From: a virus
Taxonomy: Duplodnaviria; Heunggongvirae; Uroviricota; Caudoviricetes
DNA: 33,807 nt
IMG/VR virus record: IMGVR_UViG_2695420701_000007
Location: 1 to 33,807 of that record
Direction: 5' to 3' (one strand)
Shown here piece after piece: positions 8,112 through 33,807 of this stretch. The notes below the pieces were generated by a model that was given only the letters and a program-made list of their open reading frames with translations, was not told where the DNA came from and did not search any database. A program made the translations under genes and the position numbers. Numbering within the stretch: position 1 is the first letter of the stretch; the number at the start of each line of letters is the position of its first letter.

Positions 8112-9236
8112 TTACTCTCCGCTTTCGTCCAGCATGATGCTGATGGTGATTTCTTTCGGGCAGTTATACGGGCGAACCACGATCGCAATCTGCACTTTGT
8201 CTTTTTCCGGCCATGAGATTTTTACGTCGCCGTCGCGCGGTGACATGCAAAGGCCAGGGAATACCGTGCCGTTGATTTTCAGGCTCTTTGCGCCGTCGCG
8301 CATGGGCTTCGCAAAAAGCTGTTGGTGCGCGGCCACACTTGCCGGGGTGGAGTTCAGTGAGCGATCGGCGATTTTTGGGATAGCCAGCAAACGCACCTGA
8401 CGGGCCATTTCATCGGCAACGCGCAGATATTCGATAGCCTGATAATCGCCACCGTCCACATCGAGCGTGACGCCGTCGGCCCAGTAGTAACCTTCGTAGT
8501 CGGGATACCACGTTGGTACGCTGAAACGCGCCCTGTTCAGGGCCCTGATGGTGGCAGTGTCCAGTTCGCGCTTGTCGCTGTCCTGCGGTTTATCGTTGCG
8601 GCCCATATTGACCAGTGCGCCGGTTGCAACACGGGCGGGGGAATCAGCGATCGTCACTGACGGATTGCAAAGGCGACCGGCCAGTATCCCCGGCTCATTG
8701 CCGAACAGCATCGGGGTAAGCTGCACCGCGTAAGCGGCAATGTCTTTCTGTAGTCCGGTTATGGCGGTGACGTATTCTGACCACTTCTCGCCTGTTCCGC
8801 AGCCGCGAACAGCCAGGATAAACCATGTCCAGCGCTGGAAGGTGTTATTGAGTTCGCTGCGCAGTTGCTGCGCTTTGTTGATATCGTCACCTGAGGCGTT
8901 AGCGCGAACAACGACAACGCCTTCCACCGAGAGGGTGGCCTGTGCATCCATAACCACATCAACCCACGTTCGGGTCCGACCAGAAGGCTGGGGTGTCTGC
9001 ACGGTTGCCAGCCAGATCATGGCATTTTGTCCGGCATTATCCAGAAACGCCTGCACGTTACTGCGCAACAATGAATCCTTTGTTCCTAGCAGCGAGTCAA
9101 GATCGGTTTGTGCTGTAACCGGTGTCGGGAGAATGGCTTTTGTGTGCTCGCCCACCATCAGCAGGGTGCAGGCGATCCCACGCTTGCTTCCGCTGTGGGT
9201 GTTGAGCTGATTAATCGTGACCTGTGGAAACGTCAT
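8112..9236 (-). CDS. Tail sheath protein (putative)
   Basis: 374 aa, follows the S-like gene and precedes the tube gene; assignment by size and synteny. Confidence 0.5.
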   Translation of the reverse strand: MTFPQVTINQLNTHSGSKRGIACTLLMVGEHTKAILPTPVTAQTDLDSLLGTKDSLLRSNVQAFLDNAGQNAMIWLATVQTPQPSGRTRTWVDVVMDAQATLSVEGVVVVRANASGDDINKAQQLRSELNNTFQRWTWFILAVRGCGTGEKWSEYVTAITGLQKDIAAYAVQLTPMLFGNEPGILAGRLCNPSVTIADSPARVATGALVNMGRNDKPQDSDKRELDTATIRALNRARFSVPTWYPDYEGYYWADGVTLDVDGGDYQAIEYLRVADEMARQVRLLAIPKIADRSLNSTPASVAAHQQLFAKPMRDGAKSLKINGTVFPGLCMSPRDGDVKISWPEKDKVQIAIVVRPYNCPKEITISIMLDESGE

Positions 9237-17438: not shown

Positions 17439-17957
17439 TTATTCGAAGCTGGCAAGAATCTGTTCTCGAACAGAAGATTTCATCGTTAACCCACGATCCA
17501 GGAAAAATTGGAAATGCATTAAGGCTTGTTGTTTGTGGATAAATCTCCTGCGCACAGCCTCCTGGAGTAGCCCTCCGTGGCGGGCGGCTTTTACACCGCG
17601 TTCCGCACACGTTTTATAAACCGCATTATCCGCCGAAAGACATGTTGCATCATGTATTCTCGCGTTAACAACGCAGCTTATGTCCGCATACTTCAATGCT
17701 CTCCTGCGATTTTTTATCTCAGCCATTTCAATAAAATGTTCAGGTTCGTAATCATTGGTGAAATTGTATGGAAGTTGCAGGCGTGTAAGCTGTTCCTGAA
17801 CATCAAGATTGTATTTAGCTTTTAGTTCCTCGCAGACATAGGGGTCAATCCACACACCACCCGGGTAAATTTGCCAGATAAGATCTAAGCATTTACCTTC
17901 GTAAAAATCAGACAGTACATTCGTATCGATAACACATCTGGGGCATTCAAACGGCAT
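17439..17957 (-). CDS. PIN-like domain protein (DUF4411-like), putative toxin/nuclease
   Basis: Listed ORF 17439-17990; probable start MPFECPRCVIDTNVLSDFYEG (complement of 17955-17957), overlapping the upstream gene stop by about 11 nt. VIDTNVL is the typical N-terminal strand-1 motif of PIN domains; region is AT-rich. Confidence 0.55.
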   Translation of the reverse strand: MPFECPRCVIDTNVLSDFYEGKCLDLIWQIYPGGVWIDPYVCEELKAKYNLDVQEQLTRLQLPYNFTNDYEPEHFIEMAEIKNRRRALKYADISCVVNARIHDATCLSADNAVYKTCAERGVKAARHGGLLQEAVRRRFIHKQQALMHFQFFLDRGLTMKSSVREQILASFE

Positions 17958-19092
17958 CCTCTCCGGCCTCCTGTTCGTCGTACCATTCATCCAGAAGATT
18001 GCTGAGAGCTTTTCTGTCTAATTCTAAAAGTTCAGATATGAAGGTTTCCGACGCGGAACCGGCTTCCCATGCTTTACGCGATAAGACGGTTAGGCGACCT
18101 TTATAATTTAGTGCTTCCCTTATGGGATTTGGCTCGTGTCTCTTCCAGCCTTTACGATTGGCGGTTGCCCATAGGTATCTAGTGTTTTGCTGATTAATTA
18201 AATTACATTTACTAAGACGCTCAATGATGCAAGTGGCTGATACTCTGAAAATGCTTTTTAGTCTAAGGACGGTTTCCTCATACGCCCATCCACCACCTTG
18301 CATGACGAATTGTTTTCGCAACGCGCTTTCTGGTACCAAAAAACAAGCAGCAAAGTGATTAGCAACTTTTTCTTCCGGTGAAATTGCTTTGCCATTAGTT
18401 TTATAGCTTTTAGCAGGGCCATCATACTCATCACGGTGGAAGATAAGATGAGCATATTCATGGCAAATACTGAAGATTTGACGTTCTATTGAAATGCTGT
18501 CGTGAACATTTACATAAATCGCGGTACCGTATTTGTTCGAAAACGCAGAAAATCCGAATACCATCCCTTTATCGGTTTCCTCGCGATTGAACGGGATCAC
18601 TCGAATATCCGATGCTTCCAAAATGGCTACAATGTCACCAACGCAAGTAGCGTTTCCCATACCAAGACGGAAACGTTCTTCCATAGCCTTATCTTCGACT
18701 CTTCGCAAATCTTCTGCTTTGGCGGTAAAAACAGGCATTGAGTTAGGAAGATCTTCTGGCAAATTAGCATCAGCAGCTTCCTCAATTGCATTGATATTTT
18801 TTAACTTTTCAATCAACTCATTGCGAAGTCTGGCATCCAACAAATCCGGACTATCTGCTCGCATTGCAAAACGAAACTCGCCATCATCTTGCTCATAAAA
18901 ATACCCGACAGGCTTATCGAAAATCTTGCAGAGCATGATGAGTTGGGTAACGCTTGGGACGCCTAGCGCCTGCTCAAACTTACTGTAGGTTTGACGAACA
19001 ACACCGATCGCATCTGCGACGGCGCTTGCACTCATTCCTGCGTCGTTTCTGGCCTGAACCAAGCGTTCTGCTATACGCTGTTGAATGTTCAT
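17947..19092 (-). CDS. XRE-family HTH domain fused to ImmA/IrrE-type zinc metallopeptidase (COG2856-like)
   Basis: 381 aa; N-terminal HTH (MSASAVADAIGVVRQTYSKFEQ), C-terminal HExxH motif (ICHEYAHLIF) in a context typical of ImmA/IrrE peptidases; AT-rich codon usage. Confidence 0.65.
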   Translation of the reverse strand: MNIQQRIAERLVQARNDAGMSASAVADAIGVVRQTYSKFEQALGVPSVTQLIMLCKIFDKPVGYFYEQDDGEFRFAMRADSPDLLDARLRNELIEKLKNINAIEEAADANLPEDLPNSMPVFTAKAEDLRRVEDKAMEERFRLGMGNATCVGDIVAILEASDIRVIPFNREETDKGMVFGFSAFSNKYGTAIYVNVHDSISIERQIFSICHEYAHLIFHRDEYDGPAKSYKTNGKAISPEEKVANHFAACFLVPESALRKQFVMQGGGWAYEETVLRLKSIFRVSATCIIERLSKCNLINQQNTRYLWATANRKGWKRHEPNPIREALNYKGRLTVLSRKAWEAGSASETFISELLELDRKALSNLLDEWYDEQEAGEDAV

Positions 19093-19745: not shown

Positions 19746-20137
19746 GAATGGCGCTGCGGTAAAAAGACCCTTTGCGTCAGTGCGGCCTTGCGATTGACGG
19801 CAGTCAGCGTTCTGGCCAGCGCGACATTGTGTTTGCGGGTCTGCTCTTCGTGGTACTTCTGCATGATTTTCCCGGCCGGCGTGAGTGGTTCCGGCTCTTC
19901 CGGTGAACGGCGCGGACGAACGGCAACTATCCAGCTCTGATATTCACTGCCCGGTCGCCTGTTAAGTATGTCGGTGATGGTGGTTGTGGTGGTGCGATCG
20001 GGGCTGGCCACCGTGATTTCCAGTTCGTCCCCGGGCTGTGGTCTTGTGGCTACGCCTCTCAGTGTCATGGCTGGCGTGCGCTGGCGCATAACGGCGTCGA
20101 ACTGCTGACGCTGCATGGTGCAGTGAAATCGCGTCAT
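19706..20137 (-). CDS. Hypothetical protein downstream of replication gene A
   Basis: 143 aa ORF overlapping the end of gene A; Thr/Pro/Arg-rich. Confidence 0.35.
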   Translation of the reverse strand: MTRFHCTMQRQQFDAVMRQRTPAMTLRGVATRPQPGDELEITVASPDRTTTTTITDILNRRPGSEYQSWIVAVRPRRSPEEPEPLTPAGKIMQKYHEEQTRKHNVALARTLTAVNRKAALTQRVFLPQRHSCARPAQHRRDSQ

Positions 20138-22626
20138 GATCTTACCTCCGCTGACGACTCCTGTGTGATGACGATGCGGCGGGTTGTGGCGCTCCAGTAC
20201 GCGATACGCCCGTCGCCCGGGCGAACGCGGGCACCGTTACTCACGGAAATAATGGCTGCGTCAGGCAGCTGCACACCCAGCGCGTCGAGTTCGCGGGTGA
20301 TTTGTGCGATGGTCGTGGTGTCGACAGGCACGACAACCTCCACCCTGACAGGGGTGTCTGATGCTGGTCTGGTGTTATTTTGTCCGGTATCCGTGGCGGG
20401 CGGCTGATTTTTAAGCTGTCTGATGAGCTGTTTCCGCTCGTAATGGCTCAATCCCTGCAACCATTGTGTCAGGCCATTTTCCGGAAGTGTCAGACGTTTC
20501 TCCTGCTGCCTGTTTTCTGTGCCGGTTCCGGCTGTTTTTTCGTCGCCGGGACAGTTATTGCCACGAGTCCAAGGGGCGGCAGGGCCGCCCTGAAGGTCAA
20601 AACCATTTTCGCGGGCGCTGTCTTCCGCTTCCGGTTTACGTCTTACCAGCTTCCAGTTGTCCGGATGCGTGCACACACGGGAGGATTCCCCGATGAGTGG
20701 CGACCAGATCCCGTAAATCTGTACGCTCTGTTCGCCGTAATCGTTCAGCTCATCTGCGAGGTCGTAGGCGGTGCGAATCAGGTAGTCCTTACGTGGAACA
20801 AGTACGCCGCCCTGTTTCTCTATGTAGGTGGCAAAACACCCGGCATCAGCGGCAGCAAGAACCGCATCCATTGCGTCATCCTTCAGCCGTTGCGGGCCTT
20901 CCGGGTTGCGTGCCATCTGGCTGGCAAGGCGGCGCAGTTCACGCCATACCTGACGGGAGGGGATGCCAAAGAACTGGAACTGGCGGACCCGGTGAAGGCG
21001 CGCCCAGCCGATGGCGCGTTCCACGCTTTCTGCCATCGTCTTTCCTGATTCGTCGTCGATGCGCGGTTTGCCTGTTTTCGGGTCAATGCCATCCACGGCG
21101 TGGCTGTCCAGGTTCTTTCCGATGTAGGTGGCGATATAGCTGGTCGGCGTACCTTTCGAACCGTCGACGTACTCCGCCTTAAAGCGCGGAGTTATGTCAT
21201 CGCCCAGCTCGTGGCGGTCTTCACGAATGGCAATATCGCGGGCGATGGTCACGATGCTGTCGATTTCTTCAGGATGTGCAAAGACCATCATATGCCAGTG
21301 CACCGTGCCGTCATGGTGAGGCTCCACCGTGCGGATGCCATACCAGCGCAGGCCCTTGCGGTCCAGTCTGTTACGAACGGCTTTAAAAAAAGTGTTAACC
21401 AGATAATCACTGGAATCGCGCATGGTAGCCCCGTTCCATTTGGGGTTCGGATGACCGTTCTCCGTTGTTGCGTGGTATTTTGACGGGCAGGTGACAGTCA
21501 GAAACACCGCTTTGTCGCCACGGGATTCGGCTATAAGTTCCGCCCCTTTCATGGTGGCCATCATTTCTGCCTTACGGTGAACCGGGTTACTTACTCCCGC
21601 GTAATACACTGTCTCGAGATCAATCGTGAACCCGTCTTCATTTTCCAGCATGAAACTTTTCAGGAAATCGCGTGTTTTCTCGCGCTGTGCGCGAAACTCA
21701 CTTAACGCGTCCTGGCTCAGATAGGGCGATGTTTTTCTGGAAACCAGACAGGCGGCGCGGAGTTGTTCTTCTCTCCACTCGCAACGTAAAAGCCACAGTT
21801 TGCGTTTCCACCAGTCCGCACAGGTCAGGCGAAGGATTGCGCCCGGCAGCAGTTCCGTGTCCGGTTCGTTCTTGCGGTCTTTGTCTGTTGTCAGCGCGTC
21901 ATAATGTGGAGGCATGGCGTGCAGGTGTAGCGCCATGCGGGCCAGCATCTGATACGCCTTCAGTGCCACCTCCATGGTCAGCTCGCCATCTCTGGCACCG
22001 AAACCATCACAGAGTGTTTCAAAGGAGCTGCTGAACATTGCCGCCGTCATGGTGCCCAGCGTCTGTATCTGGTGCTTGTTAAGCTGCGGCAGGTACAGCA
22101 AATCGTCCAGGCGTTCGCGTCCGGCAAGGGCGCGATAACCCGGTGTCAGCCAGCGGCTGTCGGTGCGGTCCAGTCGTTCGAATATTTTGCGCAGGGTTCC
22201 GCGCGCGTAGCCCTCTGATGGTCGACTCTTTTTGCCTTTCTGGCGGTCAGATTCCTGCTTCTTACGTAAAAAAGAGAGGCGGCGGCTCAGAGGTTCACGC
22301 AGATAAACAGGTAGCGCCTTTAGTGTGACAAATGCACGGGCCACCGGGTCTTGTTCTGTTGCCTGGCGCTTGCTGATGATGCTTTGTGTTACCTTCTCGC
22401 GCCGTTCGTCCTCATCGAGGGCGACCATGAGTTTTTTACCCATGTCTGACTGCACAAAAAAGGCTTCTTCTTCCGCCTCCCTGACTTCCTGTGCTTTCAG
22501 ATCTGCTTCCTGGTAGTAGCGTATGGCCTGTTGCAACGGGGTTTCAGGCGTAGGCTGATACTTCGCAAATGTGGCTGGGTCAATGGCCTGCCGTGGTTCG
22601 TTCCAGTCCCAGGTAAATTCACTCAT
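20134..22626 (-). CDS. A: Replication initiation endonuclease, P2 gpA-like (rolling-circle Rep)
   Basis: Listed ORF 20134-22653 (839 aa); probable start MSEFTWDWNEP. Size and position (end of early operon) match P2 gene A; contains His/Tyr-rich central region (GTVHWHMMVFAHPEE ... TPTSYIATYIGKN) compatible with HUH-type endonuclease motifs. Confidence 0.8.
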   Translation of the reverse strand: MSEFTWDWNEPRQAIDPATFAKYQPTPETPLQQAIRYYQEADLKAQEVREAEEEAFFVQSDMGKKLMVALDEDERREKVTQSIISKRQATEQDPVARAFVTLKALPVYLREPLSRRLSFLRKKQESDRQKGKKSRPSEGYARGTLRKIFERLDRTDSRWLTPGYRALAGRERLDDLLYLPQLNKHQIQTLGTMTAAMFSSSFETLCDGFGARDGELTMEVALKAYQMLARMALHLHAMPPHYDALTTDKDRKNEPDTELLPGAILRLTCADWWKRKLWLLRCEWREEQLRAACLVSRKTSPYLSQDALSEFRAQREKTRDFLKSFMLENEDGFTIDLETVYYAGVSNPVHRKAEMMATMKGAELIAESRGDKAVFLTVTCPSKYHATTENGHPNPKWNGATMRDSSDYLVNTFFKAVRNRLDRKGLRWYGIRTVEPHHDGTVHWHMMVFAHPEEIDSIVTIARDIAIREDRHELGDDITPRFKAEYVDGSKGTPTSYIATYIGKNLDSHAVDGIDPKTGKPRIDDESGKTMAESVERAIGWARLHRVRQFQFFGIPSRQVWRELRRLASQMARNPEGPQRLKDDAMDAVLAAADAGCFATYIEKQGGVLVPRKDYLIRTAYDLADELNDYGEQSVQIYGIWSPLIGESSRVCTHPDNWKLVRRKPEAEDSARENGFDLQGGPAAPWTRGNNCPGDEKTAGTGTENRQQEKRLTLPENGLTQWLQGLSHYERKQLIRQLKNQPPATDTGQNNTRPASDTPVRVEVVVPVDTTTIAQITRELDALGVQLPDAAIISVSNGARVRPGDGRIAYWSATTRRIVITQESSAEVRS

Positions 22627-23012
22627 GGTTGACACCCTGTCACGCGTTGCCATTCCTGCGAGAAGAGGGCAGAAAGACGGTTAAACTCAGTGGTGTATTC
22701 ACTCAGCGAGGCACACCCGCCAGCGGTGCGATGCGCCAGCATTGCTGCAAACACGGAGGCAGGGGAGTTGTAATACGCCAGCAGGGAGTCGCCGTGTGGT
22801 GTCAGGGTGTACAGGGCCAGACCGTGTGGTGTGAAGTCCACGCGGTAACAGTCGTCCACGATGAAATAAAGGGGGCCTGCGTTCTCTGGTTTTGTGGTGC
22901 GAGCCTGGCTGGCGCGGGCACGGAGATAGAAATCAAACATTGCCTGAAGTTTTGGAGCCAGACGGGTGTCCTGTGTGCGCACCCATTTTACGAAGTCATG
23001 ACGGTCAATCAT
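22623..23012 (-). CDS. Hypothetical protein upstream of gene A
   Basis: 129 aa ORF, stop adjacent to gene A start. Confidence 0.4.
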   Translation of the reverse strand: MIDRHDFVKWVRTQDTRLAPKLQAMFDFYLRARASQARTTKPENAGPLYFIVDDCYRVDFTPHGLALYTLTPHGDSLLAYYNSPASVFAAMLAHRTAGGCASLSEYTTEFNRLSALFSQEWQRVTGCQP

Positions 23013-23084
23013 GCTGCACCTCGCTTTGTTAAAGATGTGCGAAGGCCTCCCGCCGCAAGGTGCAGGAAAGGCCCGGAACAGGAA

Positions 23085-23315
23085 TTAATGGAGTTTGTTT
23101 TGCTGCTGGATGAGCTGTTGAAGCTCGTGCAGATCATCCGCCAGATAGCTGAATACAGCGGCGCAGTAGCTGTCTGACAGCGCGTGGCTGCGTTCATGCA
23201 GCATATTGATGTGCATGATTTGCGCGACGCGTGATGCGCGGAAAAGTCTGCGGTTGATTTCAGTCCGGATGTGACGACGCGCAGCGTATGCGCGCTGTTG
23301 TTTGCGGTTTGCCAT
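23085..23315 (-). CDS. Small basic hypothetical protein
   Basis: 76 aa, Arg-rich N-terminus (MANRKQQRAYAARRHIRTEINRRLF), follows a terminator-containing non-coding region. Confidence 0.35.
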   Translation of the reverse strand: MANRKQQRAYAARRHIRTEINRRLFRASRVAQIMHINMLHERSHALSDSYCAAVFSYLADDLHELQQLIQQQNKLH

Positions 23316-23492
23316 GATGTGGCCTCTATGTGTGTAAGTTTTGAAAACTCACCATCCAGAGCTGCGAAACTGTGGGTGGCGAGACGTACGAGGTTCGCAG
23401 TACCGGCAAACATAGAACCCGGCCCGACCGAAGTCGGCCCCGTACGCCCCACCATAATTCGTGTGCGAAAAAGATGTGGCGATACAGTACGC

Positions 23493-23515
23493 ACAAAAAA
23501 ACCGCTGGCGCGGTT
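23493..23515 (-). terminator. Rho-independent terminator candidate (minus strand)
   Basis: Minus-strand reading AACCGCGCCAGCGGTTTTTTTGTG: GC-rich hairpin (ACCGC/GCGGT) followed by a T7 run, inside a roughly 320-bp non-coding stretch. Confidence 0.5.
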
Positions 23516-23635
23516 GTGCGCTATGTTTGTCAGCGGGCTGCGAAACCCGGCACCCGTTTTATGAGGTGCAGCGGAAATGTAACCTGACTGATTGCGACAT
23601 GGCAAGCGGTTTTTTTGTGTGTGCATGATGATCAC

Positions 23636-24190
23636 TCAGTTCGGCAGCAGTTCGTACAACAGGGCGTCGGCGGCGGTCCGGCGGTTGTAGAGGTGAAACG
23701 CCGTATCATCGCTGATGTGCATTTGCATCGTGATGTTGATGTGTTTCGCGATTATGCAGAACGTCATGTTGCGTCTGTCGCGTAGCTCCGTAACCAGCTC
23801 AGCCAGACGATCGCTGTATCTGGTGCAATGGTGGCTCTCGCCGCATTTCTTAAGGCTGTAACCCCGTTTATGCAGTGTGTACCTCACGGTGCACTCGCTG
23901 CGTCCCACCTTCCGGGCCAGTTCCCGTGCGGTTTTTGCGTGACGGTTTTTGGTGAGAAAGGCGATGGCTTCTGCACTCAGCGGTGCTTTTCTCTTGCGAC
24001 CAATCAACCCGCGATTACGTAAAAAAAGAATCCGGTGCATCACTGCGCTGCGGGTTCGCTGAAGTCGTTCAGCCATTTGCCATGTGCTGTGATCCTGATA
24101 AAGCGAGATAAGCAGTTCGTCTTCCTGTTGTGTCCAGGCACTGACGTGCTTCGGTGCTTTACCTGGTCCCCCCATTGGTTTCAGAAACAT
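23636..24190 (-). CDS. Putative DNA-binding regulator with two HTH-like repeats
   Basis: 184 aa; two helix-turn-helix-like segments (STWQMAERLQRTRSAVMHRI and TARELARKVGRSECTVRYTL). Confidence 0.4.
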   Translation of the reverse strand: MFLKPMGGPGKAPKHVSAWTQQEDELLISLYQDHSTWQMAERLQRTRSAVMHRILFLRNRGLIGRKRKAPLSAEAIAFLTKNRHAKTARELARKVGRSECTVRYTLHKRGYSLKKCGESHHCTRYSDRLAELVTELRDRRNMTFCIIAKHINITMQMHISDDTAFHLYNRRTAADALLYELLPN

Positions 24191-24492
24191 GATTTGGCCT
24201 CCTTACGGCTTTCTGGTGTGGAGATGATCAGATTCAGTTTCAGGGCGGTGGCGTGTTCCTCTTTTGCCCCCGGCGAGTCCTCCCAGCCATCCAGCAGGTA
24301 AATCACATCGGCACAGTGCAGCATGGCGCTCCCGATAAGCATGTAGTCCCTGTATCTCAGCCCGTCAGGGAGTGTTGCGGGGTTGAGTACGGTATGACCC
24401 TGCATCCTCAGGCGGGTCGCCGTCATGGTGAAGGCGGTGCGGTTGAAATCAGGCTTCCCCGTCATGGGGCCAGCGATATAGATAACGGCCAT
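24181..24492 (-). CDS. Nucleoside 2-deoxyribosyltransferase-like protein (DUF4406-like)
   Basis: 103 aa starting MAVIYIAGPMTGKPDFNRTAF, the typical N-terminus of the DUF4406 / deoxyribosyltransferase-like fold found in phages. Confidence 0.5.
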   Translation of the reverse strand: MAVIYIAGPMTGKPDFNRTAFTMTATRLRMQGHTVLNPATLPDGLRYRDYMLIGSAMLHCADVIYLLDGWEDSPGAKEEHATALKLNLIISTPESRKEAKSCF

Positions 24493-25451
24493 TACATGAT
24501 CTCCGTGGTGGGGTGTGGAGCGGGAATGTGAGACAGCCAGCCCGCATTGACATCCCGGATCCGGACCTCACGGGCTGGCGGATAAACACCAATCACCTCT
24601 TTTGCCTGCTGGCGTGCACTGCTGCTGGCAGCCACAGCGCGGCGAACGCTCAGGGTGTGCAGCTCAAACGAGGAATAGATCTGCCGGGTTTCGGAGGTGT
24701 CACTGTTGGAGACCACCGGGTGGATACCGTAACGCTGCCAGGCGTTCATCATGAGCGCCGCAAGGTCACGGTGGTCTTTGCGGGTAAATGCCCGGCCGTT
24801 GTAGTGAGTGAACGCCTCTTTACCGTCCGGTGGCAGGTAGGGCGGATCGCAGTAAATGGCGATATCGCCGTGCACCGAAGAAAAACGGCGGATCTCAGCC
24901 GGCATTGTGAAGGCTGTACGGAAATCCGCGTGAATAAAGCGGGTCCGGGTCTCGTTGGCTTTATCAGCAAACAGGCGCATTTCCTGGCAGGGGAAATAAG
25001 GCATGCGGTGTTTGCCGAATGGCACATTGAATTCGCCTTTTTGGTTGGTGCGGTACAGGCCGTTAAAGCAATGGCGGTTCAGGTACAGAAACAGCGCTGC
25101 CCATTCCAGGGATTCGCCGCGTAATCTGTCGGTGGCCAGCGCGATGGTGTTAAATGCCCCGCGATGGCGTTTGTAGGCTTCCGGTGTGCCGCCATCCTTA
25201 AAGAGCGACCATGCACGATCCATTAATTCCGTGGTGTTGGTCGTCAGTTGCTGGTAGAAATTAATCAGCGCGGGGTTGCTGTCACACAATACGTAATAGT
25301 CATAATCCGTGTTCATGAAGACCGAGCCGCCGCCCACGAAGGGTTCGATCAGGCAGGCGGCTTTGGGTAAATATTCGCGCAGCTGCGGCATGATACTGAA
25401 TTTGCCGCCCGCCCATTTGAGCGGTGAGCGCTGGTTCAGAATACCTTTCAT
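24492..25451 (-). CDS. dam: DNA adenine methyltransferase (Dam-like, D12 class N6-A MTase)
   Basis: 319 aa; N-terminal LKWAGGK motif, catalytic DPPY motif (IAIYCDPPYLPP), FxGxG-like SAM region (EPFVGGGSV). Confidence 0.8.
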   Translation of the reverse strand: MKGILNQRSPLKWAGGKFSIMPQLREYLPKAACLIEPFVGGGSVFMNTDYDYYVLCDSNPALINFYQQLTTNTTELMDRAWSLFKDGGTPEAYKRHRGAFNTIALATDRLRGESLEWAALFLYLNRHCFNGLYRTNQKGEFNVPFGKHRMPYFPCQEMRLFADKANETRTRFIHADFRTAFTMPAEIRRFSSVHGDIAIYCDPPYLPPDGKEAFTHYNGRAFTRKDHRDLAALMMNAWQRYGIHPVVSNSDTSETRQIYSSFELHTLSVRRAVAASSSARQQAKEVIGVYPPAREVRIRDVNAGWLSHIPAPHPTTEIM

Positions 25452-28303: not shown

Positions 28304-28717
28304 ATGTCAACAGAAAAAGAGGAACTAAGCGTCATTATTGGCCGTCGATTACGGGAGGAGCGAGAGAAAATTGGCATGACCCAAGATGATATGGCGTCGA
28401 TTTTTGAAGTTTCTACAAAGACTTGGGGGAAGTATGAAAGAGGGGTGACTACACCGGATGCAGTTATGTTGAATCTCTTGGGAGGGCGCTGCGGAGTAGA
28501 TGTCTATTACATACTTTCTGGTAGTCGTGCACATGGCATCCCTAATGCTACTGAAGATGAGATTGAGCTAATTAAAATATATCGTTCTGCACCTTTGGCT
28601 GTTAAGGCGGCAGCTTTGGCAGCCTTGACTGCTGGTAGTTTGTCTCTAGGTACAATAAGAGCTTCTGGCAAAGGCCATCGTATTGCAGGTCGTGACTATA
28701 ACGAAACGAAGGGTTAG
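28304..28717 (+). CDS. Immunity repressor, XRE-family HTH (CI/C-like)
   Basis: 137 aa; N-terminal HTH (GMTQDDMASIFEVSTKTWGKYERG); divergent from the early operon and co-oriented with integrase. Confidence 0.7.
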   Translation: MSTEKEELSVIIGRRLREEREKIGMTQDDMASIFEVSTKTWGKYERGVTTPDAVMLNLLGGRCGVDVYYILSGSRAHGIPNATEDEIELIKIYRSAPLAVKAAALAALTAGSLSLGTIRASGKGHRIAGRDYNETKG

Positions 28718-29872: not shown

Positions 29873-30874
29873 ATGTCTGTTCGTAAATTACCTACTGGCA
29901 AATGGCTCTGTGAATGCTACCCCTACGGAGCAGCAGGAAAACGCATTCGTAAACAGTTTGTTACTAAGGGTGAGGCGCTCTCTTATGAGCGCCGTTTAAT
30001 GAACAGTAATTTGGGGAGCGAGTTTCAGGATGGTTCTGGCCCCCGCCTTTCCGAGTTGGTTGCTCGCTGGTTTGAGATGTACGGTAAGACACTGTCTTCC
30101 GGTGAAGAGCGAAGGGCTAAACTTGAGGCGATTTGCTCCCGGTTGGGGGATCCGCTTGCTTCTCAATTTGATAAAAACATGTTTGCCACCTACAGGGAAC
30201 GGCGATTATCAGGTGAATGGAATCCAAAGGGGAAGAGGAAGCTTAGCGAAGCAACCGTTAATCGTGAGCAGTCATATCTACATGCTGTTTTTGCCGAACT
30301 GAAGCGCCTTGGGGAGTGGTCTGGTGAAAACCCCTTAACTGGCATTCGCAAATTTCGTGAGGAAGAAAAGGAACTGGCGTTTCTGTATGTAGATGAGATT
30401 GAACGCCTTCTGATTGCGTGTGATGAGTCACGGAATAAAGATTTGGGGGTTGTTGTCCGTATTGGGCTTGCGACTGGTGCTCGGTGGAGTGAAGCAGAAG
30501 GATTAAAGCAATCTCAAGTACTGCCCGGTCGAATCACATTTGTTAAAACTAAAGGAAAGAAGAACCGCACTGTACCGATTTCACCTCAATTGCAGGCTAT
30601 GCTTCCTAAAAAACGAGGAGCGCTATTTTCACCATGTTATGAGGCTTTTGACGCTGCAATTAAGAGAGCGAAGATCGAGCTTCCTGATGGGCAATTAACT
30701 CATGTGCTACGTCACACGTTTGCCAGTCATTTTATGATGCGGGGCGGAAATATTCTTGTGTTGCAAAAAATACTGGGGCATAGCGATATAAAAATGACTA
30801 TGCGTTATGCGCATTTTGCTCCAGGTCATTTAGAGGCTGCTGTTGAATTGAACCCTTTTGACAATAGAGGGTAA
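29873..30874 (+). CDS. int: Tyrosine integrase (phage integrase family)
   Basis: 333 aa; C-terminal catalytic region HVLRHTFASHFMMRGGNILVLQKILGHSDIKMTMRYAHF (HxxR ... Y); adjacent to the tRNA-derived att core. Confidence 0.85.
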   Translation: MSVRKLPTGKWLCECYPYGAAGKRIRKQFVTKGEALSYERRLMNSNLGSEFQDGSGPRLSELVARWFEMYGKTLSSGEERRAKLEAICSRLGDPLASQFDKNMFATYRERRLSGEWNPKGKRKLSEATVNREQSYLHAVFAELKRLGEWSGENPLTGIRKFREEEKELAFLYVDEIERLLIACDESRNKDLGVVVRIGLATGARWSEAEGLKQSQVLPGRITFVKTKGKKNRTVPISPQLQAMLPKKRGALFSPCYEAFDAAIKRAKIELPDGQLTHVLRHTFASHFMMRGGNILVLQKILGHSDIKMTMRYAHFAPGHLEAAVELNPFDNRG

Positions 30875-31230: not shown

Positions 31231-31896
31231 ATGAAAACGGGACCGTTAAACGAAAGTGAGTTGGAATGGCTGGACGATATTCTGACCAAATACAACACTA
31301 ACCACGCCATCCTTGATGTGGCGGAGCTGGACGGTTTATTGACGGCGGTGTTGAGTTCTCCGCAAGAGATTGAACCGGAACAGTGGCTGGTTGCCGTGTG
31401 GGGTGGGGCTGACTATGTGCCGCGCTGGGCGTCAGAGAAAGAGATGACGCGCTTTATGAACCTGGCTTTTCAACATATGGCCGATACCGCAGAGCGTCTG
31501 AACGAATTCCCGGAGCAGTTTGAGCCGTTATTCGGCTTGCGAGAAGTTGATGGCAGCGAGCTGACGATTGTTGAGGAGTGGTGCTTTGGCTATATGCGGG
31601 GCGTGGCACTTTCTGACTGGTCAACGTTGCCCGATTCGTTAAAACCAGCGCTGGAGGCGATTGCGCTGCACGGTACTGAGGAAAACTTCGAGCGGGTAGA
31701 AAAGATGTCGCCAGAAGCGTTTGAAGAGAGCGTAGATGCCATTCGACTGGCGGCGCTTGATCTACATGCGTACTGGATGGCGCATCCGCAGGAAAAAGCT
31801 GTTCAGCAACCGATCAAAGCAGAAGAGAAACCGGGGCGTAACGATCCTTGCCCGTGCGGTAGTGGTAAGAAATTTAAGCAGTGCTGCCTGCATTAA
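31231..31896 (+). CDS. yecA: YecA-like SEC-C motif protein (UPF0149)
   Basis: 221 aa ending in the SEC-C zinc motif [15 protein letters not shown]; host gene following the leuZ locus. Confidence 0.8.
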
Positions 31897-31957: not shown

Positions 31958-33169
31958 TCACCCCACTTCTGGTAACAACCCTGCCGCAATCAAAAATTGC
32001 ACGCCAATCACAGCAATACCACAGAGAAACACCACCACCAGCGCCGGACGACCACCTTTGACCCGGTAACCCGCCTGAGGATTGTGCTTTCTGCTTTGCC
32101 AGGTCAACAGCGAAGGGATAATCAATGCCAGTACCGCCAGCGCCACACCGGCGTAACCCAGCGCCATCACAAATCCTCGTGGATAAAACAGTGCAAACGC
32201 CAACGGCGGCAGAAAGGTAATTGCACCAGTTTGCAACCGTCCACCAACGGTATTTGAACGCTGAAATAAATCAGCCAGATAATCAAATAAGCCTAACGCA
32301 ACGCCGAGAAATGACGTGGCGAGGGCTAAATCAGCAAATAAATGCACTGCCAGCTCAACATGCGGAGAGGCCACCATTTCGCGTAACGCCTGTAACAGCC
32401 CGTTTAATCCAGCATGATTAGCCAGCAATCCCATAAAGGTTGTTGAATCAATGCTGCCAAGCGTTGCCACCTGCCAGAAAATATATGCCACCAGGGGGAT
32501 CGCACTACCGGTTATAAACACCCAGCGTAGCTTACGAACGTTGCCATCCATATAGCTGACAATACTCGGCACGCTACCGTGAAAACCAAATGAGGTAAAA
32601 ATCACCGGGATTGCTGACAGAGCCAGCCCCTGTTGCAACGGCAGGGTTAAAAGATTCACTTTGTGAATATGCGGTAGCAGCAATACCAGCATCACCACCA
32701 GAAAAATAATTTTGGCGCTGAACAGAAAACGGTTAAATAAATCGACCAGCGATGTTCCAACACAAACCACGCCACCGGCAACAAAAGTGAACAACAGCAC
32801 GCCAGCGGTTGCCGACATTGAAATACCTGTCCAGTCGCTGATGCTGGAGGCCAACAATTCACCGACACCGCTGATGTATGCCGCAGTCAGAGCATACATT
32901 AAGAACATCATACTGAAGCCCGTCAGCCATTGACCGTAGCGTCCCAGATAGCGTTTTGCCAGCGTGCCCAGACCGGTATCTGCCGGAACATGCTGGTACA
33001 CCTCCAGCAGTAATAGCGCCGTGTAGCACATCAACGCCCAAAGCCCAATCAACAAGATTAACGTAACGCTAAAACCAACACCGGCCGCAGCCAGCGGCAT
33101 TGCCAGCATGCCTGCGCCAATTGTGGTTCCCGCCACGATAAAAACACTTCCCAGGGTTCTGTTTTTCAC
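31958..33169 (-). CDS. tyrP: Tyrosine-specific transport protein (aromatic amino acid permease family)
   Basis: 403 aa polytopic membrane protein; size, hydrophobicity profile and synteny with yecA/yecH match E. coli tyrP. Confidence 0.8.
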
Positions 33170-33711: not shown

Positions 33712-33807
33712 CTGATGAATCCCCTAATGATTTTGGTAAAAATCATTAAGTTAAGGTGGATACACATCTTGTCATATGATCAAATGGTTTCGCGAAAAAT
33801 CAATAAT
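33712..33807 (+). mobile_element. IS10 (Tn10-type) outside end, partial; extends beyond the window
   Basis: CTGATGAATCCCCTAATGATTTTGGTAAAAATCATTAAGTTAAGGTGGATACACATCTTGTCATATGATCAAATGGTTTCGCGAAAAATCAATAAT matches the IS10 outside terminus as I recall it (terminal inverted repeat, pIN promoter region with its GATC site). Confidence 0.75.

Follow-up and report, generated by a model that had tools for sequence, protein, structure and literature searches.

Phages P1 and P7 carry an immunity region, immI (c4 - icd - ant), which is the founding member of the Rfam C4 family. P1 c4 is an antisense RNA made from the leader of the operon that it represses; its a' and b' segments pair with a2 and b2 at the ribosome-binding site of the first gene, further copies called a1 and b1 lie upstream, and the cargo of the operon is an anti-repressor. 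In P1 and P4 the mature C4-type RNA is released from the leader by processing (RNase P, 3' trimming) and acts as a repressor in trans. Differences in specificity between P1 and P7 reportedly lead to heteroimmunity, a finding credited to Citron and Schuster in 1990. Here we describe a 320-bp island, positions 23316-23635, in a 33.8-kb stretch of viral DNA (IMG/VR record IMGVR_UViG_2695420701_000007, the whole of which we call the window), and we argue that the island is probably an RNA control cassette of the P1 c4, P4 CI, and Gifsy-1 IsrK type, located in the early operon of a P88-like prophage.

Two further systems are relevant. In the satellite phage P4 the immunity region runs PLE - seqA - CI RNA/seqB - seqC - kil/eta - epsilon - ... 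- alpha. The immunity factor of P4 is an RNA, and pairing of this CI RNA with seqA and seqC causes premature termination ahead of the replication genes (PMC4825925). The corresponding operon of Gifsy-1, in Salmonella, is transcribed and untranslated at baseline; short IsrK supplied in trans raises translation of anrP 139-fold and transcription 8-fold; and b1-b' pairing was proved there by compensatory mutants (PMC4825925), of which G28A/C162U and G31A/C159U map to b1 and b' as defined below. Both IsrK and the neighboring STnc1160 RNA are highly expressed in Gifsy-1 lysogens under all conditions tested (PMC7067206).

The window holds a P88-type prophage of the P2 family (genus Xuanwuvirus), closest in the phage collection to PhiR44_2, P88, and P884B11. 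On the minus strand, which also carries every feature of the island, early genes come first, a Dam-type methyltransferase and a DUF4406 protein among them; then follow a gene for a 184-amino-acid (aa) helix-turn-helix (HTH) protein (24190..23636), the island, genes for proteins of 76 and 129 aa, and replication gene A. A gene for a repressor-like HTH protein of 137 aa (28304-28717), the integrase, and host genes lie farther right. The 184-aa gene has its stop at 23636 and the next gene its ATG at 23315, leaving a gap of exactly 320 bp, in agreement with a sequence-only reading that had put it at about 320 bp. A 701-bp query around the island (23000-23700) finds matches in 1,398 of 5,426 complete E. 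coli genomes, about a quarter, and in 1,111 of them the match covers at least 80% of the query; these genomes have roughly 1,566 copies in total, and roughly 150 of them carry two or more. RefSeq leaves the island blank and some phage records place a hypothetical or ash-like protein there; reading it as an IsrK plus C4 switch corrects both kinds of annotation. The analysis itself shows the RNA family matches, the folds, the complementarities and how these covary, that a2 overlaps a ribosome-binding site, and which family the protein encoded next resembles.

Two RNA families within the island

The covariance-model search that the sequence-only reading had suggested was run with Rfam over the entire window, taking the curated gathering scores as thresholds, and two families passed within the island. 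Their positions, and those of the associated signals and pairing patches, are as follows.

23635..23009, minus strand: long open frame of 208 codons, of which 148 follow an AUG at 23455 inside C4
23605..23600, minus strand: -35-like hexamer TTGCCA from a promoter scan, preceded by an A7 tract at about 23615..23609
23581..23576, minus strand: -10-like hexamer TACATT from the same scan, with an 18-bp spacer
23569..23495, minus strand: isrK (RF01394), 69 bits against a threshold of 50, E 6.2e-13, full length
23545..23538, minus strand: b1 (UUUCGCAG), complementary to b', inside the IsrK-like RNA
23529..23521, minus strand: a1 (CAAACAUAG), a perfect 9-bp complement of a', inside the IsrK-like RNA
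23515..23495, minus strand: intrinsic terminator, stem AACCGC/GCGGTT at 23515..23500 and U7 at 23501..23495
23459..23372, minus strand: C4 antisense RNA (RF01695), 81.8 bits against a threshold of 45, E 8.7e-15, model positions 1-87 of 87
23415..23407, minus strand: a' (CUAUGUUUG), in the 12-nt loop of C4 hairpin 2, unpaired in the fold
23400..23394, minus strand: b' (CUGCGAA), in the single-stranded junction of C4
23369..23362, minus strand: b2 (UUUCGCAG), a second target of b', 3 nt past the C4 match
23331..23325, minus strand: a2 (ACAUAGA), overlapping the Shine-Dalgarno (SD) sequence AGAGG at 23327..23323

The 75-nt IsrK-like RNA consists of hairpin 1, hairpin 2 with b1 in its loop, a1, and a terminator hairpin followed by U7, and it belongs to isrK both by its score above the gathering threshold and by its three hairpins, the last of them a Rho-independent terminator. 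A hairpin plus T7 terminator had already been noticed on the minus strand at about 23493-23515, and it proves to be the 3' end of this RNA; it lies 180 nt ahead of the next gene and is invariant in relatives. Position 1 of the isrK model (G 23569) falls 7 nt past the -10-like element, and transcription would start at about 23569. The TTGCCA hexamer is invariant in 55 distinct P88-like sequences among the matches listed, and the promoter block is conserved in all relatives though the gene upstream of it varies. A third family, the c4-a1b1 motif (RF03163), reached 22.9 bits at 23582..23531 and missed its gathering score of 46.7, and the role of a1 and b1 in the window is supported by covariation in place of a match to this model.

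The C4-like RNA has a long closing stem around hairpin 1 (GGGCCGACUUCGGUCGGGCC), hairpin 2, and a single-stranded junction. Folded alone, the stretch 23459..23372 has as its minimum free energy (MFE) structure the consensus structure of the family, at -44.5 kcal/mol (z = -3.9; none of 200 shuffles equaled it). Two full-length Rfam matches above threshold, together with this z score, indicate that the features exceed chance. The GC-rich stem-loops remarked on in the sequence-only reading find their explanation here as well, the palindrome GGCCCGACCGAAGTCGGCCC on the plus strand at 23421-23440 being the complement of C4 hairpin 1.

Downstream of C4, b2 and a2 repeat the paired b and a motif of the IsrK-like RNA, and a2 overlaps the SD of the 76-aa gene, which lies 7 nt ahead of its AUG at 23315. 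The paired motif occurs at two sites only in the 33.8-kb window, b1/a1 and b2/a2, and we dropped the idea of further C4 targets in the window on this ground.

Covariation of the pairing patches

An exact-match scan of IMG/VR with the 21-nt core of C4 hairpin 1 gave at least 120 loci, at least 85 of the sequences having the P88-like layout when the window and two fetched phage records are counted; formal covariation counts were made on the 53 distinct P88-like sequences among the matches listed. This comparison with related prophages, which had also been proposed beforehand, found the variation to be compensatory and to lie in six patches. Specifically, i) nearly all variable columns fall inside a1, a', a2, b1, b', and b2, the remainder being near invariant; ii) there are at least 15 types of a', at least 6 types of b', and at least 20 combinations, the same a type being found with different b types; iii) for a'-a2 plus b'-b2, 88.6% of cells are paired and the covariation is 0.526, against 0.113 for shuffles and 0.055-0.184 for slid partners; iv) for a1-a' plus b1-b', 94.7% of cells are paired and the covariation is 0.619, against 0.112 for shuffles and 0.040-0.164 for slid partners; v) in the a1-a' helix all cells (100%) are paired, with changes on both sides in 7 of 9 pairs and up to 5 pair types per position; and vi) predicted stabilities favor cognate over non-cognate duplexes by about 8 kcal/mol. 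The regulatory RNA suspected in the gap is thus borne out in the form of an IsrK-type leader small RNA and a C4/CI-type antisense RNA whose targets covary.

The window takes part in this pattern. Its a type is unique among the matches listed, and the two changes in a' relative to the type of locus L010 are matched by changes in a1 and a2; the a' of the P88 type is CUGUAGUUG. One P88-like variant (L006:5188-5497) departs from it, with a b1 (AUUCUCAC) that mismatches its own b' (GUGGAAA) while b2 still matches; this b1 has the same letters as the b' of P4, and the variant could be a recombinant or a decaying copy. Two genomes among the matches listed carry two P88-like copies each (L004/L054 and L078/L082), and in both the types differ, numbers too small for a test of exclusion. 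No a' type was common to P4-like and P88-like loci, six P4-like loci having been fetched for the comparison.

Short direct repeats (b1/b2, a1/a2) with inverted copies (a', b') near gene A might also be taken for DNA sites, and an origin-like element was one of the possibilities raised by the sequence-only reading. The nature of the pairs speaks against a protein-binding or origin-like DNA element, since a'-a2 and b'-b2 tolerate G-U pairs (U-G in 11 cells, G-U in 5), which are sensible in RNA only and point to RNA rather than DNA pairing; moreover, the repeats occupy the loops of structures that RNA covariance models recognize, they behave as RNA pairing partners, and no iterons were seen. The origin of P2 lies inside gene A, which counts against an origin in the island as well. 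ARAGORN found no transfer RNA (tRNA) in the island region, on which ground we rejected a tRNA or attachment-site role for the island, and no tRNA or attachment-site-like feature is present in the region. We regard a DNA element here as extremely improbable.

The same data bear on whether the island is merely an attenuator acting in cis, in which the intrinsic terminator lowers transcription into the replication genes with no RNA acting in trans. A canonical hairpin with U7 placed 180 nt ahead of the next gene, and invariant in relatives, is what such a device would look like, but it leaves unexplained the 88-nt C4 structure past the terminator, the three-way compensatory covariation of a1/a'/a2 and b1/b'/b2, and a promoter-like block that is kept while its neighbors change. 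We consider a cis-only attenuator very unlikely. The earlier suggestion of an attenuator before the replication genes survives in part: the terminator is there, as the 3' end of the IsrK-like RNA, but the gene directly controlled would be the 76-aa gene and not gene A.

At least four unrelated kinds of gene are found upstream of the promoter block in the P88-like group, and three kinds follow the epsilon-like (76-aa) gene among the matches listed; because flanking genes on both sides vary, the RNA genes and the epsilon-like gene behave as one cassette. The covariation of the patches is a natural record of RNA-RNA specificity diversifying through compensatory change and through reassortment of a and b types, and the prophage variants supply candidate orthogonal antisense/target pairs.

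The long open frame and the downstream genes

The 208-codon frame across the island is open in all 71 of the 71 related islands among the matches listed. Its dN/dS (the ratio of nonsynonymous to synonymous substitution rates) is 1.06 across the island and 1.18 in the part shared with the 76-aa gene, against 0.38 in that gene's own frame, which is under purifying selection; and 7-65% of synonymous shuffles of the epsilon-like gene still have an open +1 frame by chance. The view that the gap holds no convincing protein gene is upheld, in that we find in the island no gene under protein-level selection. As for the open reading frame (ORF) 23009-23635 itself, it had been called probably spurious, with protein homology named as the finding that would tell against this; the lack of protein-level selection agrees with that judgment, but protein homology is touched on by a borderline match to Pfam PF10554, Phage_ASH.

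Could the ORF nevertheless be a true gene of the "Ash family"? Its frame is always open, as just described, some phage records annotate a hypothetical or ash-like protein, and the translation of 23581..23300 scores 27.5 bits against a PF10554 threshold of 26, the whole ORF falling below it at 25.3. Against this, i) dN/dS in the frame is far from that of the overlapping 76-aa gene; ii) the variation obeys base pairing and not codon positions; iii) no NCBIfam model matches the 208-codon ORF, and the island is unannotated in RefSeq; and iv) the strong Phage_ASH match in P4 (59.7 bits; L003 8330-8521, minus strand) covers exactly CI RNA plus seqC, within an obsolete "cI protein" ORF, where the immunity factor is an RNA (PMC4825925). 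The matches cover the isrK/C4 region here and CI RNA plus seqC in P4; the "Ash" family seems to be a protein profile that was derived from an RNA gene, and the match in the window appears to be the translated shadow of the isrK and C4 RNA genes. We rejected the ORF as a protein gene on the dN/dS values, the synonymous shuffles, and the tracing of the Ash match to the P4 CI RNA region, and hold a genuine Ash gene to be highly improbable.

Three genes follow the island.

23315..23085, minus strand: 76-aa P4-epsilon-like "derepression" gene, Pfam PF25738 "Derepression", 31.2 bits against a threshold of 27
23012..22623, minus strand: 129-aa gene, function unassigned, no Pfam or NCBIfam match, in a PHROG of unknown function
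22653..20134, minus strand: replication gene A, Phage_GPA, 426 bits

The 76-aa protein is 30% identical to P4 epsilon (E 2e-8), its RefSeq product name is "derepression protein", and it is most likely a homologue of the epsilon anti-repressor, as predicted from its sequence. Its messenger RNA (mRNA) is rich in C and poor in G, with a C/G ratio of 1.53 where gene A has 1.02, a composition that would suit Rho. Polarity from a translational block onto the 129-aa gene and gene A is possible by analogy with P1 and P4, in both of which such a block brings about early termination ahead of later genes. Between the 76-aa and 129-aa genes lies a 72-nt spacer with an imperfect G+C-rich hairpin at 23040-23078 on the minus strand (GGCCUUUCC ... 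GGGAGGCC) that lacks a U tract. The 129-aa gene has its own GAGG, and we considered it as a homologue of P4 orf151 and found no homology. Gene A starts 31 nt ahead of the end of the 129-aa gene (22623-22653) with just an AGGA abutting its ATG, an arrangement that suggests translational coupling of gene A to the 129-aa ORF.

Elsewhere in the window, a 381-aa protein (17947-19092, minus strand) with HTH_3 and Peptidase_M78 (ImmA/IrrE-like) domains is encoded about 1 kb downstream of gene A, past two small ORFs, and by its domains could be a second, protease-type derepression or defense module of the prophage. On the other side of the island, at 24181-25451 (minus strand) in the early operon, a D12-class adenine methyltransferase is followed by the DUF4406 protein, which resembles nucleoside 2-deoxyribosyltransferases; the two ORFs share one base. 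Beyond the prophage integrase (29873-30874) lie host genes for a UPF0149/SEC-C protein (31231-31896) and a tyrosine/tryptophan permease (31958-33169), which adjoin a match to Rfam RNA-OUT, the IS10/Tn10 antisense RNA (33757-33807, minus strand, 60.6 bits), truncated by the end of the window.

Proposed control, and comparison with P4, Gifsy-1, and P1

We propose that an internal promoter starts RNA at about 23569 and that most transcripts would end at the hairpin and U7, giving the 75-nt IsrK-like RNA with b1 and a1. The terminator would have to be read through for C4 and the downstream mRNA to be made, and the read-through RNA would carry the C4-like RNA with b2, a2, and the 76-aa gene after it. 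If homology with P1 and P4 is a guide, C4 would be excised from this leader as a stable tRNA-like RNA, and its a' (loop) and b' (junction) would pair with a2 and b2, the former on the SD. Such pairing would stop translation of the epsilon-like anti-repressor, with the result that the prophage repressor stays active, and the untranslated C-rich mRNA would perhaps be terminated early, with less expression of the 129-aa gene and gene A. The IsrK-like RNA, along with b1 and a1 in cis, would compete for a' and b'; the ratio of terminated to read-through RNA and the size of the C4 pool would then set the threshold for anti-repressor expression, and the a and b patches would be the specificity determinants that differ among related prophages.

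Several points weigh against this scheme. Homology is the basis for presuming promoter use (including firing in the lysogen), read-through at the terminator, the processing of C4, and the direction in which regulation runs, and the putative target of the 76-aa protein, the prophage repressor, is assumed by homology with epsilon. The promoter-like site matches the consensus at 9 of 12 positions, with its 18-bp spacer; the extended a'-a2 duplex of the window has one internal mismatch, as in the L010 type, and pairs without interruption over 7 bp, where most relatives do so over 9-11 bp; and polarity onto gene A has base composition as its one argument. The predicted MFE of the whole leader pairs b1 and a1 with a' and b' in cis, with loss of the canonical C4 fold. 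Finally, in Gifsy-1, co-expression of STnc1160 with IsrK enhanced toxicity and gave no relief (PMC4825925), and for this reason a simple model in which IsrK sponges C4 fits poorly.

Because of the whole-leader fold, regulation could be mainly a structural switch in cis, as proposed for Gifsy-1. The read-through RNA would then be locked in cis, as in the Gifsy-1 "structure A", and an IsrK-like RNA would remodel it in trans as an activator; ribosomes would start at AUG 23455 and translate the 148-codon frame, with ATGA coupling into the 129-aa gene and then gene A, and processed C4 would not be the key repressor. Such a mechanism, with a translated upstream ORF (orf45), was shown experimentally in Gifsy-1 (PMC4825925), and AUG 23455 lies in the same conserved AUUAUGG as the orf45 start. 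Of 72 loci among the matches listed, 64 have a frame of 147-149 codons from this AUG, and in 61 of the 72 its stop overlaps the next gene's start as ATGA, no matter what that gene is; two variants with several indels retain the frame through a net change of +3. The 148-codon frame (23455-23009) is possibly an orf45-like coupling device. Yet no SD lies ahead of AUG 23455, the frame is disrupted in three relatives (L039, L050, L118) by 2 nt inserted into the C4 loop, the dN/dS values given above show no protein-level selection on it, and the synonymous shuffles leave it open by chance often enough. The covariation of a'-a2 and b'-b2 and the position of a2 on the SD are superfluous for a Gifsy-1-type switch and are exactly predicted by a C4 repressor. 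We think it unlikely that Gifsy-1-type logic is the principal mode of control.

P88 is inducible by mitomycin C (PMC5285337). We found no LexA site in the cassette; the one candidate LexA/SOS box, seen by eye, is a half-site (TACTGTAT, at about 23494..23487) that lacks the right half and whose CTG is lost in several relatives, and it was rejected.

We also put forward a wider proposal, tentatively and with more doubt than confidence: P88-like P2 phages would carry a second, P4/P1-type layer of RNA immunity that gates an epsilon-like anti-repressor and, by polarity, gene A, with the patches as specificities, a common origin in helper and satellite, and "Ash" as a translated RNA gene. If this is true, the six hypervariable, co-evolving patches would set at least 20 interchangeable specificities, and these would determine whether relatives that share a host or superinfect it, among them P4-like satellites with the same RNA scaffold, can derepress one another; the arrangement IsrK/seqA - C4/CI - epsilon would then be a sign that the control regions of helper and satellite have one origin, and would give their RNAs a route to act on each other. 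The cassette itself puts a probable RNA-controlled anti-repressor in P2-like prophages, whose induction is usually discussed through the C/Cox switch only, and the layout shared with P4 bears on the exchange of control modules between helper phages and satellites. The literature that we searched contained no paper linking C4 antisense RNA with P2-like phages, and neither the P88 genome paper (PMC5285337) nor a 2026 survey of P2-like viruses mentions these RNAs or the derepression gene.

Comparison with P4 reveals a common layout and a distinct setting. In P4 the isrK model matches at 8692..8615 and the C4 model matches CI RNA at 8507..8420 (74.9 bits), in the same order as in the window; a promoter-like TTGCCT-17-TATAGT precedes the isrK match in the equivalent place; copies of b and a flank CI, the downstream a copy lying on an AGGAGG SD; and an epsilon-family derepression gene and then a replication gene follow. 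The P4-type immunity layout, isrK/seqA - CI - seqC and then an epsilon homologue, is present in the window. The traits of the satellite type (an Icd-like ORF first, alpha primase, a satellite genome) are absent from it: the element lies in a complete P2-like phage, a helper type, whereas P4 is a satellite; the epsilon-like gene comes directly after a2, whereas P4 first has a 64-aa Icd-like ORF, no counterpart of which was found in the window cassette; the replication gene is gpA, a rolling-circle nickase, rather than the alpha primase-helicase; IsrK and C4 are 35 nt apart instead of 107 nt; and the 76-aa protein shares only 30% identity with epsilon. The P4 64-aa ORF after seqC (L003 8171-8365, minus strand), which we take to be kil, matches the NCBIfam model "host cell division inhibitor Icd-like" at 73.9 bits; by this match P4 (CI - icd-like - epsilon) and P1 (c4 - icd - ant) share their first cargo gene, which the P88-like cassette lacks.

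Gifsy-1 resembles the window in its isrK (79.3 bits) and C4 (69 bits) matches, in having b2 and a2 ahead of the start of the anti-repressor gene anrP, and in its own promoter and leaky terminator, both of which have putative counterparts in the window. Because the C4 model matches there, the "orf45/STnc1160" region of Gifsy-1 is itself a member of the C4 family. The two differ in that the c4-a1b1 model passes in Gifsy-1 (48.1 bits) and fails in the window; Gifsy-1 is a lambdoid phage, whose cargo is an AnrP-type anti-repressor that switches on the antiterminator AntQ; the frame starting in C4 has 45 codons there against 148 in the window; and its authors take IsrK for an activator and see an ORF in the C4 region.

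The likeness to P1 rests on known descriptions of the P1 system. Relative to immI, the window has no icd-like gene, its cargo is of the small epsilon type and not Ant, and the element lies inside the early replication operon of a P2-like phage. Further groups of loci that share the C4 core have, behind a2, a gene for an anti-repressor of the Rha family or the Bro-N/P22-AR kind, or for another protein of the Derepression family. The cassette is a further example of a known system and not a new kind of element; its points of interest are an epsilon-like cargo as in P4, a place ahead of the replication genes, and many co-evolving types of specificity.

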